In this document: positions 6,279-45,239 of the stretch, in pieces
Numbering within the stretch: position 1 is the stretch's first letter
Layout: each line of letters begins with the position of its first letter
IMG/VR virus record: IMGVR_UViG_3300032116_000013
Span: 32,001 to 96,000 of that record
Source: a virus
Strand: one strand, 5' to 3'
DNA: 64,000 bases
Made by a program: the position numbers and the translations under genes
The notes under the pieces: model-generated
The model's database searches: none
Told to the model about the DNA's origin: nothing
The model's input: only the letters and a program-made list of their open reading frames with translations

Positions 6279-6530
6279 ATGAAAGCAGTATCACTAATTC
6301 TTGCTGCTTTGTTATTGGTAGGTTGTGAAGGTGGTTATAGATATCCTTGTCAGGATCCAGAAAATAAGGACAAAGAAGAATGCAATCGTCCTGCTTGCGA
6401 GGCTGATGGATATTGCTACGATACATTGAATGGATTGCCACCAGAGCAATCAGAAACACAGGTTGAACAAGTTGAAGAAACACCAGCAGCACCTGCTGCA
6501 GATTGTAATTGCGAACAGAAAGGAGAATGA
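6279..6530 (+). CDS. Cys-rich lipoprotein
   Basis: Lipobox LLVG-C; PCQDP...C..PAC...C. Confidence 0.75.
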   Translation: MKAVSLILAALLLVGCEGGYRYPCQDPENKDKEECNRPACEADGYCYDTLNGLPPEQSETQVEQVEETPAAPAADCNCEQKGE

Positions 6531-6532
6531 TT

Positions 6533-6865
6533 ATGTTTAAGGGTCCACGTTATACTGAAACTGAATTGATGGCTCGATTGAAGTTTACTGTCGGTCTATC
6601 ACTCGCATTCACGCTCACTGGAATTGTTTTTGTTGTTCTGTACTCACTTATCTTTGTGACACAGCCAATGACTCAGTCTCCAAATGATGCCAAGTTCTTT
6701 GAACTCATCACACCAATTGCTACGTTCCTAACTGGTATTCTATCAGGCATTATGCTTGGCAAGTCAGAAGATAAAAAGGAAGAGCCAAAGAAGGAAGAAC
6801 CAGAAGTTCTTGCTCCAGAGCCAATGAAAGACGTTGTTGATGAGGTCGATGATCATATCGCCTGA
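6533..6865 (+). CDS. two-TM membrane protein, possibly lysis-related
   Basis: Two hydrophobic segments, acidic tail, AGGAG RBS, directly upstream of the endolysin. Confidence 0.7.
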   Translation: MFKGPRYTETELMARLKFTVGLSLAFTLTGIVFVVLYSLIFVTQPMTQSPNDAKFFELITPIATFLTGILSGIMLGKSEDKKEEPKKEEPEVLAPEPMKDVVDEVDDHIA

Positions 6866-8030: not shown

Positions 8031-8876
8031 ATGAAAACATTGGAGGAGAAAAAACTCCTAGTGAAAATGGCAAGAGCATTCGGTCAGCCAGTTGACCCTG
8101 CGCTCGTCGAGTCCATTCGTCGCGAAGAAGAACTCACAAAATTATTATTTAAAGAAGAAAAGAAGATAGTTGCCTACGAAGAAGGGACAACTTTTTTAAA
8201 TCGCAAACCTATTTTTGAAGAACCTCAAGTTTTAACAGAGATCGCTCCACTTGACGAACTTCCGCCGCAGCCAGCTAAACCAGCCGAAACTAATTTACAA
8301 CCTCCAAAAGAAGAATTGGTGCAGCAAGTCGTTAATGTTCTTGGTCCAAAAGCAAATACTGCCAATAACTTCTATAGAGACAAAGAGATCGAAGGCATTC
8401 GTAAAACTCTTGCTGAGATGATGCAGAAGATTTCCACTCTTTCTTGGGGTGGCGGTGGTACTGGTATTGTTCGCATTTATGATGCTGACGATTTTGCAAG
8501 ATCGACAATACAAGACCCAAAACAATTTGTAACGTGGCGTAATGGTTACTTTCAATTAGATTATATCAATCCAAATGAAATTGTAGCAAATACAGTTTAT
8601 CTAACTTCAAATACTTACCAGATAACAAACGATGATTATTATATTGGCGTCAACGTTGCATCAAACGTAGTTGTTACATTGCCACCATCTTCTGATATAT
8701 ACACTGGAAGAGAATTTTACGTCAAGGATGAATCTGGGACAGCGGGATATCCTTATCGCTATATCGACATTTATCCAACAGCGCCAGATAAAATAGATAA
8801 TAAGAGTTATGTTCGTTTAAATATTAACAACGGCGGATTGAAGTTTATTTACCGCGACGGCTGGAGAGTCATATAA
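8031..8876 (+). CDS. hypothetical, probable virion structural protein
   Basis: Long ORF with C-terminal beta-rich DYYIGV...TLP...VKDESG module. Confidence 0.65.
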   Translation: MKTLEEKKLLVKMARAFGQPVDPALVESIRREEELTKLLFKEEKKIVAYEEGTTFLNRKPIFEEPQVLTEIAPLDELPPQPAKPAETNLQPPKEELVQQVVNVLGPKANTANNFYRDKEIEGIRKTLAEMMQKISTLSWGGGGTGIVRIYDADDFARSTIQDPKQFVTWRNGYFQLDYINPNEIVANTVYLTSNTYQITNDDYYIGVNVASNVVVTLPPSSDIYTGREFYVKDESGTAGYPYRYIDIYPTAPDKIDNKSYVRLNINNGGLKFIYRDGWRVI

Positions 8877-29071: not shown

Positions 29072-29200
29072 AATACTAAATAACGAACCAGCCGCACAAC
29101 CTTTCGGTGTAGTGTTTGTCGCACAGCGATGGCTGCTTTTGTAAAAGAGGAATCTAGGACGCATTGCGCAGTGCGTGACGATAGATGAACCGAAACCTTT

Positions 29201-29398
29201 ATGATTCTACAACCAAAAACAAAATACGGACTGCAGTTCTTGCAGATGTACGGAAGCGAATGGTTTCTCATTCGCAAAATGGACTCTCACTATTCTTCAA
29301 AACGTCCAGGACCATGGGGTTATGTTCAGCAAGTTGATGGGCTGAAAACTTTTTTCGTACATTTACAAGATGACCCCCATTTCGTAATACAACGGTAA
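29201..29398 (+). CDS. hypothetical protein
   Basis: Short ORF in gene-sized gap. Confidence 0.5.
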   Translation: MILQPKTKYGLQFLQMYGSEWFLIRKMDSHYSSKRPGPWGYVQQVDGLKTFFVHLQDDPHFVIQR

Positions 29399-29437: not shown

Positions 29438-30211
29438 ATGCAATACAAATCAATCTTTATCTCCGATGTCCATCTCGGCTCCAAGGGATGCAAGGCTGAA
29501 TTACTTTCTGATTTTCTAAAAGAAAATACTTGCGAAAATCTATTCCTAGTCGGTGACATTATTGATGGCTGGCGACTCAAGAGAAAATTCTTTTGGTTGC
29601 AATCACACACTGATGTGATTCGTAAAATTCTCAAAGCAGCAAAAAATGGAACGAAGGTTATCTATGTTGTAGGCAATCACGATGATTCTTTCCGCGATCT
29701 TCTGCCGTACGATATTCATTTTGGTAATATCGAACTAGTCAATCAATGCCGCTATAATGCAATCAATGGCAAGAGATATATGGTAATTCATGGCGATTTA
29801 TTTGATGCTGCTCTTGCAACAAAACTTTCTTGGTTGTATCATGTTGGCGATTGGTTTTATGATATACTTTTGAGCATCAATCATGGATTGAATAAACTCC
29901 GCACTAAACTCAATATGCCATATTGGAGTTTGAGTGCATATCTAAAAAATAAAACAAAAGAAGCAGTTGCATTTATGTCTGATTTTGAAGTTCTCATCAC
30001 AGACTACTGCAGGAAATATAATACACAGGGTGTTATTTGCGGACACGTTCACAAAGCAGCAATCAAGGAAATCAATGGTATTGAATACATGAACGATGGT
30101 GACTGGGTTGAATCATGCACAGCATTGGTCGAGAATCATGATGGATCTTGGGAGATTGTGAATTATCTTCACAATATCGATAAGCGTAAAAAAATTGAAA
30201 AATTTTTGTAA
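29438..30211 (+). CDS. metallophosphoesterase, PlcP/LpxH-like
   Basis: ISDVHLG, VGDIIDGW, GNHD, HGD.FD, GHVH, NDGDWVESCTALVE. Confidence 0.85.
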   Translation: MQYKSIFISDVHLGSKGCKAELLSDFLKENTCENLFLVGDIIDGWRLKRKFFWLQSHTDVIRKILKAAKNGTKVIYVVGNHDDSFRDLLPYDIHFGNIELVNQCRYNAINGKRYMVIHGDLFDAALATKLSWLYHVGDWFYDILLSINHGLNKLRTKLNMPYWSLSAYLKNKTKEAVAFMSDFEVLITDYCRKYNTQGVICGHVHKAAIKEINGIEYMNDGDWVESCTALVENHDGSWEIVNYLHNIDKRKKIEKFL

Positions 30212-42525: not shown

Positions 42526-42611
42526 GCGTAGTTGTGTGAGTGGTTAAAACAGACAGACTGTAAATCTGTTGCCTTCGGGCTACGGTGGTTCGAATCCATC
42601 ACTACGCACCA
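42526..42611 (+). tRNA. tRNA-Tyr(GTA)
   Basis: Loop CTGTAAA, long variable arm, CCA. Confidence 0.9.
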
Positions 42612-42628
42612 ATTTTTGTTATGATTTT

Positions 42629-42702
42629 GGGACTGAAACATTAAAGTGATGTAACGGACTTTTAATCCGTAAAAGAGGGAGCGTTACCCTCCAGTCCTAC
42701 CA
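42629..42702 (+). tRNA. tRNA-Lys(TTT), atypical T-loop
   Basis: Loop CTTTTAA; T-loop AGCGTTA. Confidence 0.85.
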
Positions 42703-42709
42703 TACGTTC

Positions 42710-42785
42710 GGGTCTATCGTATAACGGTGATTATATCTGGCTCTTAACCAGTTTGATGCAGGTTCGAATCCTGCTAGACCCACCA
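42710..42785 (+). tRNA. tRNA-Lys(CTT)
   Basis: Loop CTCTTAA, CCA. Confidence 0.9.
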
Positions 42786-42789
42786 ATTT

Positions 42790-42863
42790 ATCTCGATGGT
42801 GTAATGGTAGCATACGAGTCTCCAAAACTCTTGGTTGCGGTTCGAGTCCGTATCGGGATACCA
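42790..42863 (+). tRNA. tRNA-Trp(CCA)
   Basis: Loop CTCCAAA, CCA. Confidence 0.9.
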
Positions 42864-42865
42864 TT

Positions 42866-42914
42866 CTGTCTCTGATGAGTCCGTAGGGACGAAACGCTGT
42901 GAAGCGTCAGACAG
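42866..42914 (+). ncRNA. type I hammerhead ribozyme
   Basis: Stem I CTGTCT/AGACAG; core CTGATGA; stem II GTCC/GGAC; GAA; stem III ACGC/GCGT; GTC triplet ending at 42908. Confidence 0.9.
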
Positions 42915-43286
42915 CAGCGCGACCTTGTGGTGTAGCGTGATGCAAAAAACACGTGGGGTAAAAAGTCCATCATTAAGTTGGGAAAATCCACCTCTGTTTA
43001 GGTGCTGAGATGTATCCGATAGAGCCTGTGCATGGGCTTGTGTAGGCATCCAAAGCAAAACCACACTTTTGAATTCAGATGCATAGGTTCCTCGCGACCT
43101 TAAAAGCGAGCGCGTAGCATGATAACGAACTCTCATGCAGGAGCGGTGGTTACTTACACCGCACGTATTTTAAAAAATTCGCGCACCCGAGAAAAAGTAA
43201 CCAATCTTCACTCGAGCCGATCGCAGGAATACTTGACCCATCCTTCACGCCAACCAATACTGCGTGTAAACAACGGTCTCTTTTTT

Positions 43287-43361
43287 TGGCGTGTAGATCA
43301 GCGGTAGATCAAGTGACTGTTAATCACTCTGTCGTAGGTTCGATCCCTACCACGCCAGCCA
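43287..43361 (+). tRNA. tRNA-Asn(GTT)
   Basis: Loop CTGTTAA, CCA. Confidence 0.9.
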
Positions 43362-44827: not shown

Positions 44828-44901
44828 GCCTCTTTAGTTCAATAGCAGAACACATTCTTGGTAAGGATGAAACGATGGAGCGTAACCATCATGAGGCACC
44901 A
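44828..44901 (+). tRNA. tRNA-Thr(GGT), atypical T-loop
   Basis: Loop TTGGTAA; T-loop AGCGTAA; one acceptor mismatch. Confidence 0.8.
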
Positions 44902-45164: not shown

Positions 45165-45239
45165 GCTGCTTTAACTGAGATAGATTAGTGCGAGTCTGAA
45201 GAACTCGATAGGTTGGTGCGATACCAACAGGCAGCACCA
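45165..45239 (+). tRNA. tRNA-Phe(GAA), atypical T-loop
   Basis: Loop CTGAAGA; T-loop TGCGATA. Confidence 0.85.

Follow-up and report, generated by a model that had tools for sequence, protein, structure and literature searches.

Genes and features at the locus

The DNA analyzed here (the window) is a stretch of 64,000 nt, corresponding to bases 32001-96000 of a 197,424-bp IMG/VR virus record that is rated complete (IMGVR_UViG_3300032116_000013). The DNA of the source phage contained 26 to 29 tRNA genes, as counted with ARAGORN and Rfam. No close cultured relative of the phage was found, and one of its structural proteins was about 50% identical to marine cyanomyovirus and Puniceispirillum phage HMO-2011 proteins. 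This suggested that the source was an uncultured aquatic phage.

All the features described at the locus lie on the plus strand. tRNA-Trp (CCA), the last of six upstream tRNAs, spans 42790-42863 (ARAGORN; Rfam tRNA model, 55 bits). The count of six, which had been given in an earlier note on this DNA, was correct if the tRNA at 42629-42699, detected by Rfam only, was included. This was one of three matches to the tRNA model that had no ARAGORN call (the others at 44828-44898 and 45165-45236; 43.7-49.5 bits), which may be atypical phage tRNAs. A type I hammerhead motif follows at 42866-42914, and the end of tRNA-Trp placed by ARAGORN at 42863 agreed with the 2-nt spacer reported in the same note. 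A conserved pseudoknotted RNA, recognized by covariance model R1, occupies 42909-43067 and starts at the predicted cleavage site of the hammerhead.

Behind this RNA is a trailing unit (43068-43171), made up of a hairpin at about 43091-43110 and a terminator-like hairpin with a T run at 43143-43171. The former has a 5-bp stem and a loop starting with GACCUU, which resembles the P2 loop of the knotted RNA (ACCUU; see below); the hairpin may represent a module that is related or has been truncated. The trailing unit is present two times in the related contig L258. tRNA-Asn is at 43287-43361, and just 5' of it is a weak promoter-like site (43233-43261; 9 of 12 matches in a consensus scan). The terminator-like and promoter-like elements weakly suggest that the cassette ends the first tRNA transcription unit.

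The hammerhead motif

The complete catalytic core and three paired stems claimed in the earlier note could be read directly from the sequence at 42866-42914. Stem I is 6 bp long (42866-42871 with 42909-42914) and is followed by the core CUGAUGA (42872-42878). Stem II consists of 4 bp (42879-42882 with 42887-42890), including the G10.1-C11.1 pair (42879/42890), and is capped by a 4-nt loop. GAA (42891-42893) leads into stem III, which has 5 bp (42894-42898 with 42903-42907) and a GUGA tetraloop; the 4-bp stem with a 6-nt loop drawn originally is equivalent. C17 is at 42908, and the cut is predicted between 42908 and 42909.

All the elements of a type I core were present (C3 U4 G5 A6 N7 G8 A9, G12 A13 A14, A15.1-U16.1 at 42894/42907, and G10.1-C11.1), and H17, being C42908, is not G. 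The free-energy minimum of 42864-42916 was exactly the three-stem hammerhead with an open-ended stem I. The folding energy of this segment alone was ordinary (z = -1.47). Folding of the 288-nt context gave an unreliable global minimum, in which even the tRNA was broken, and was disregarded.

The scan with hammerhead covariance models proposed in the earlier note gave, at a relaxed threshold, a match to RF00163 (Hammerhead_1) that spanned 42866-42914 end to end with 30.5 bits (E = 1.7e-5 for the search of 701 nt, and 1.1e-6 with respect to the 197-kb genome), though below the gathering threshold of 34 bits. The match was absent from the default Rfam scan, and routine Rfam annotation would therefore miss this hammerhead. 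The low score stemmed from the short stems and loops, and not from mismatches in the core.

A strict descriptor (6-bp stem I, core, 4-bp stem II, GAAA, 4-bp stem III and UH) matched the 64-kb window once and gave no match on either strand of 300 shuffled windows. A loose pattern of the core only was not enriched (12 found versus 14.9 expected). This indicated that the site was special by its pairing and not by its core words. Only one hammerhead was present in the whole genome. No match to an HDV-family Rfam model was detected in 42600-43300, even with E values up to 10.

Loop II (GUAG) displayed no complementarity to the stem I flanks, and neither a pseudoknot nor a tertiary contact of stem I with loop II was visible. 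The rate of cleavage at cellular Mg2+ could thus be low. Loop II and stem I were nearly invariant across the relatives described below, which hints at some further constraint on their sequences.

Conservation and covariation in the hammerhead family

The exact 24-nt sequence of the core and stem II was present in 31 IMG/VR contigs. Searches of IMG/VR and JGI metagenomes with wider patterns gave a family of 97 loci on aquatic viral and metagenome contigs, representing 30 distinct hammerhead sequences; estuarine and lake metagenomes were the source of most members. The relatives scored 30.5-31.3 bits with RF00163, and the whole subfamily therefore escapes default annotation.

Twenty-six distinct versions of 47-49 nt were aligned for the analysis of covariation; the large-insert forms in L027 and L032 were kept outside. 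The catalytic core was invariant in all 26. Paired bases occupied 98.4% of the cells, with 96-100% in each of the three helices. Compensatory double changes occurred from U-A to C-G in stem I, from C-G to U-A in stem II (in four sequences), and at three pairs in stem III. The observed level of covariation was reached in none of 500 shuffles, and the slid-partner controls paired at only 29-41%. The sequence of stem I was nearly invariant, beyond the need of pairing alone.

The loop of stem III can be enlarged by roughly 10 to 90 nt. Forms of 59 and 63 nt exist, and about 90 nt are inserted in this loop in L021, L022, L027 and L032, with the core and stems I and II unaltered. L027 and L032 have GUA as their cleavage triplet (the A17 variant).

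In a close syntenic metagenome contig, L258, the hammerhead was identical at 49 of 49 positions, whereas the RNA region and the spacer were only 56% and 53% identical. Taken at the sequence level, these comparisons confirmed 42866-42914 as a real and conserved type I hammerhead, probably of the active type.

The knotted RNA downstream

The match of R1 to 42909-43067 (68.8 bits, E = 1.6e-14) was the only strong one in the genome. The structured RNA that belongs to the hammerhead, and that the earlier note had placed downstream of it, takes up only about 160 of the 370 nt that precede tRNA-Asn. In 60 of the 97 family loci, R1 placed the start of the RNA precisely at the A of the cleavage site, and the RNA was 114-190 nt long. 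Two scans keyed on the RNA core only returned 13 true copies each, and a hammerhead was directly upstream in all 13.

RNAalifold on the alignment of the RNA gave helix P1 only. The remaining helices were recognized by eye, and counts of pairs in the 26 distinct RNA sequences served to test them. Compensatory changes were present in 16 of the 24 proposed pairs. None of 500 shuffles reached any of the five measures of covariation, and the slid controls paired at 30-43%.

P2 (42917-42920 with 42935-42938; 3 of 5 pairs covarying) encloses a conserved loop that holds ACCU, the 5' strand of P1 and GUA. The 5' strand of P1 (42926-42931) pairs with 43060-43065 near the 3' end, which is followed by a U-rich stretch, and thereby forms a pseudoknot. 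Four of the six P1 pairs covaried, and 98% of the cells were paired. A variable insert (42944-42999), absent in the minimal forms of 114 nt (such as L010 5531-5644, minus strand), separates P2 from an invariant AGGU (43000-43003). This AGGU could pair with the likewise invariant ACCU at 42922-42925, which would provide a second pseudoknot helix; since both are invariant, no covariation is possible between them. P4 (43004-43009 with 43051-43056) covaried at all seven pairs, contains a GA/AA internal loop and encloses the long hairpin P5 (43016-43046). In L025 and L026 the internal loop of P4 is replaced by Watson-Crick pairs.

No Rfam family scored above its threshold on the knotted RNA. Neither ARAGORN nor Rfam called a tRNA or tRNA-like structure in 42909-43286, and a tRNA-like identity was ruled out by the covarying helices, which form a pseudoknot and not a cloverleaf. 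When the hammerhead and RNA (the versions of the window and L010) were compared by megablast and blastn with 50,697 GenBank phage records, only tRNA fragments were matched.

The copy of the RNA in the window was atypical. It scored 68.8 bits versus 90-120 bits for most others, and it was without the nearly invariant UUAG segment after P4. In L258 (1101-1512), a single hammerhead heads two knotted RNAs in tandem, and between them lies a repeat of about 50 nt. The same repeat is present 3' of the RNA copy in the window (about 43068-43120), and the single copy in the window corresponds to the second one of L258, so that the window seems to have arisen by deletion. This second copy in L258 has no hammerhead of its own, which indicated that a hammerhead at the 5' edge is not strictly required by the RNA.

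Such rearrangements are what might be seen in a selfish or decaying cassette, that is, a mobile passenger among phage tRNA regions, of which the window copy would be a remnant with its cleavage useless or lost. The duplication in L258, the apparent deletion in the window, the missing segment of the RNA and the minimal-looking hammerhead without an obvious tertiary contact all agree with this, as do the sharp boundaries of the cassette and its patchy occurrence over unrelated phages, from T4-like marine myoviruses to 190-kb phages. However, decay does not fit with a hammerhead that is 100% conserved between flanks of 53-56% identity in L258, or with compensatory substitutions in all hammerhead stems and in the RNA. 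There is also one copy per genome, and nothing resembling an integrase or reverse-transcriptase partner was seen in the vicinity. We consider a selfish or decaying cassette unlikely.

Relation to the COG2908 motif

The COG2908 motif (RF02939, listed as cis-regulatory) has a model of 45 positions, with an outer stem, a hairpin with a ACCUUUCGGUGUAG loop and a second hairpin. The hammerhead-linked RNAs shared with it a short closing helix around an ACCUU-NN-GGUGUAG loop. They scored only 18.8 bits (at 42913-42944) and 20.3 bits (in L291) with RF02939, against a cut-off of 58.7 bits, and shared only the first hairpin; membership in this family was therefore rejected. The hammerhead-linked RNA is without the second hairpin and outer stem of the Rfam model. 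It has instead a P4-P5 arm and variable inserts, and lies in tRNA arrays without a gene to regulate.

A bona fide COG2908 RNA is present in the window at 29090-29134 (RF02939, 72.7 bits). It precedes a 65-aa ORF (29201-29398) and a gene for a 257-aa metallophosphoesterase of the LpxH/COG2908 type (29438-30211). The loop of this RNA at 29102-29108 is complementary to a tail at 29189-29195, about 55 nt past the end of the Rfam model. This suggested that the 45-nt motif of Rfam probably covers only the front of a longer RNA with a pseudoknot. In the COG2908-type loci matched by R1 (see below), the loop is likewise complementary to a distal tail, and this tail is preceded, as in R1, by AGAU(A/G)AACC.

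In the reverse direction, R1 in full length matched 29086-29196 of the window, which covers the COG2908 RNA and about 60 nt downstream, with 16 bits (E = 2.8e-4 on 601 nt). On the bona fide COG2908 RNAs of the window and of L348, a 62.8-bit member of RF02939, the full-length R1 scores were 16-19 bits. R1 also matched L363 (23 bits; below the RF02939 cut-off) and L393. Hammerhead-less relatives of the knotted RNA thus exist, of the COG2908 type. In L037 and L072, bare forms of 39-41 nt consist only of the ACCU, NNNGGU, AGGU and ACCNNN elements.

The reciprocal weak matches, the common order of elements and the shared logic of pairing argue with moderate strength, at the level of sequence comparison, that the hammerhead-linked RNA is an elaborated relative of a wider class of phage pseudoknots that includes COG2908. 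Scans with exact 14-15-nt patterns for the RNA or COG2908-like loops gave mostly chance matches, and a single scan of genome contigs returned only matches that looked like coding sequences.

The upstream neighbor

The earlier note had proposed that the hammerhead cuts behind tRNA-Trp and frees the block of six tRNAs. Processing of the tRNA operon, by detachment of the upstream block or by a start of the 3' maturation of tRNA-Trp, has the position of the hammerhead in its favor. The hammerhead begins 2 nt behind the CCA of tRNA-Trp in both the window and L258, and 3-6 nt behind other tRNAs in L280, L303 and L008. The subfamily is also enriched near tRNAs: 22 of 32 copies lay no more than 500 nt downstream of a tRNA on the same strand, compared with 4 of 122 other phage hammerheads with the same stem II. 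The theta ribozymes, which are discussed below, would provide a precedent.

Neither the identity of the upstream tRNA nor its distance was conserved, however. Distances ranged from 2 to 993 nt, and the neighbor was tRNA-Trp, Val, Thr, Asp, Cys, Ala or Glu. A site resembling a sigma-70 promoter lay between the tRNA and the ribozyme, ending 7-36 nt before the latter, in 24 of the 56 distinct contexts. In L131 (a complete record of 188 kb) and L280, tRNA-Trp adjoins tRNA-Asn, and the hammerhead-RNA unit is located between other tRNAs of the array. The cassette thus shifts within arrays along with its downstream RNA.

The products of the cut also speak against a role in tRNA maturation. A 45-nt structured trailer with a cyclic phosphate would stay on the upstream tRNA, the 3' end of which would still need host nucleases. 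Independence of the host, as had been envisaged for this processing, would therefore hold for the single cut only, and the tRNAs would still require RNase P and 3' trimming. We regard a function in tRNA processing as quite improbable. Judged from the variable neighbor and distance, and from the promoter-like site in the 24 contexts, the adjacency of the hammerhead to tRNA-Trp appears to be incidental.

In L010, L012, L016, L024 and others, a conserved promoter-like element, TTTACA-17-TATATA, was seen about 20-60 nt upstream of the hammerhead. In these loci the hammerhead would strip off a leader of about 60 nt that bears the 5' triphosphate.

Contexts without the knotted RNA

In contexts that have the hammerhead but not the RNA, the downstream side was likewise constant. 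In all 20 distinct contexts of this kind, the stem I strand that would be released by cleavage has a 5-bp partner with which it can fold into a 5'-terminal hairpin. The hairpin is followed by a ribosome-binding site and a gene for an 81-aa winged-helix protein. The constancy of the downstream side and the variability of the upstream side indicated that the hammerhead belongs with what comes after it. The idea of the earlier note that the downstream structured RNA would gain a defined 5'-OH end at 42909 is supported by the comparative data.

In T4-like marine contigs, the 81-aa winged-helix protein was followed by an Hsp20-type-like ORF and a T4-type DNA polymerase-like ORF, the latter two recognized by eye. 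A homologue of the small winged-helix gene is present in Pelagibacter phage HTVC008M. In the annotation of that phage, an S21 ribosomal-protein gene lies 2 nt upstream of the homologue and leaves no room for the cassette. In the marine loci L262, L308 and L309, an ORF lies within about 25 nt of the RNA, and its N terminus resembles PII (GlnB-like) proteins, by eye only.

The alternative partner of the 3' strand of stem I, which in the RNA-bearing form is an extension of P2, together with the near-invariance of stem I beyond the need of pairing, might also be taken for a regulated switch, in which this strand toggles between the ribozyme and a downstream helix, and conditional cleavage tunes the knotted RNA or the downstream gene; yet no ligand-binding or sensor element was identified, and a fold that forms after cleavage and caps the new 5' end would account for the alternative hairpin just as well, so that we consider this very unlikely. 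Cleavage with religation into a circular RNA was rejected on the basis that no RtcB and no RNA ligase family of the Rnl2 type was found and that the genome contains a single hammerhead, with which a circular or rolling-circle form is not possible; a search for T4 Rnl1 gave no match in the phage, nor in any of the control genomes.

Proposed mechanism

The reading that we favor, with a probability of roughly 0.6, is that the hammerhead is the 5' module of a portable cassette and gives the downstream RNA a defined 5'-OH end. After transcription, the ribozyme would fold and cut after C42908. Nearly the whole ribozyme would then leave with the upstream fragment, which in the window would consist of tRNA-Trp and the 45-nt trailer and bear a 2',3'-cyclic phosphate at its end. 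The same cut would free the downstream RNA with a 5'-OH at A42909, and the segment 42909-43067 would fold into a compact pseudoknot, in which the P2 loop is joined to the 3' tail (P1) and probably to AGGU, with the P4-P5 arm inserted. Its new 5' end would be tucked beside the knot or, in the RNA-less contexts, into the hairpin.

In this way, a transcript that is not a tRNA would acquire a fixed, phosphate-free 5' end, whatever stands upstream, tRNA or promoter. RNase P is unable to make such an end on an RNA that is not tRNA-shaped. 5'-end-dependent decay of bacterial RNA prefers a 5' monophosphate. Cleavage would have to take place in vivo, and the 5'-OH may be the selected property, for instance through escape from decay that senses the 5' phosphate.

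A more far-reaching interpretation, which we put forward tentatively and at somewhat less than even odds, is that the hammerhead and the knotted RNA together form a self-maturing RNA gene that is moved between promoters and tRNA arrays and represents a new class of functional phage RNA. The RNA would then be an elaboration on an H-type pseudoknot of the form ACCU-NNNGGU...AGGU...ACCNNN, related to COG2908. It might work as a cap-like protector of the 5' end, or act on the transcription or decay machinery.

Comparison with known systems

Type I hammerheads of phages and prophages (RF00163, clan CL00010) have been found in intergenic positions of polycistronic transcripts, and it was suggested that they divide long phage transcripts into units (Perreault et al. 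2011, PMC3088659). The word tRNA appears in that paper only in the reference list. The present subfamily has the same fold, an identical catalytic core and the same open stem I. It differs from the hammerheads described there in that it scores below the cut-off and is without their loop II pseudoknots, and in that its members are located within or next to tRNA arrays and are tied to one particular downstream RNA.

The theta ribozymes, minimal HDV-like ribozymes that adjoin tRNAs of gut phages, have been suggested to take over a processing step from the host (Kienbeck et al. 2024, PMC10879173). They share with the present hammerhead their being a small self-cleaving type of ribozyme amid phage tRNA genes. 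However, a theta ribozyme has a nested double-pseudoknot fold, cuts at its own 5' edge and frees the 3' end of a tRNA, whereas the present one has a hammerhead fold, cuts at its own 3' edge, would serve what lies downstream, and belongs to aquatic instead of gut phages. Because a type I cut leaves the 45-nt structured trailer on the upstream tRNA, its role would be unlike that proposed for the theta ribozymes.

The arrangement found here also has engineered counterparts. In insulators of the RiboJ type and in hammerhead-led tRNA transcripts, a hammerhead placed upstream makes the 5' end independent of the promoter, often with a hairpin after it. These are man-made, and the RiboJ hammerhead remains with the downstream product; in the present case, nearly the whole ribozyme would leave with the upstream fragment.

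Type I hammerheads fused directly to tRNAs were present in L091 and L094, in which the 5' strand of the tRNA-Tyr acceptor serves as the 3' strand of stem I and the predicted cut falls at +1 of the tRNA. RF00163 was too insensitive for these (20.8-25.7 bits), and a custom search was used. The fused hammerhead of L091 is at about 8393-8530. In L094, a 347-kb IMG/VR contig, two consecutive tRNA-Tyr-like genes, each with its own hammerhead, occupy about 6477-6620 and the next 200 nt or so. On their sequence, such cuts would be a 5' maturation without RNase P. This again would be a 5'-end-making role, and it supports the general theme.

The full-text literature searched, mostly from outside the subscription journals, contained no description of hammerheads within phage tRNA arrays or of this knotted RNA.

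Implications

Routine Rfam annotation overlooks this hammerhead subfamily. The purpose of bacterial and phage hammerheads has been a puzzle since thousands of them came to light in 2011, and the present family gives an unusually clear handle on it: about 100 natural sequences, in which one ribozyme stands in fixed register with one partner, in two contexts (promoter and tRNA array) and with rich covariation. The vague idea that hammerheads cut phage transcripts thereby becomes testable, by relating the 5'-OH or the knotted RNA to stability or fitness. If the more far-reaching interpretation is true, it would mean, together with the hammerheads that are predicted to cut at +1 of a tRNA in other phages, that aquatic phages routinely make the 5' ends of RNAs with ribozymes instead of host enzymes.
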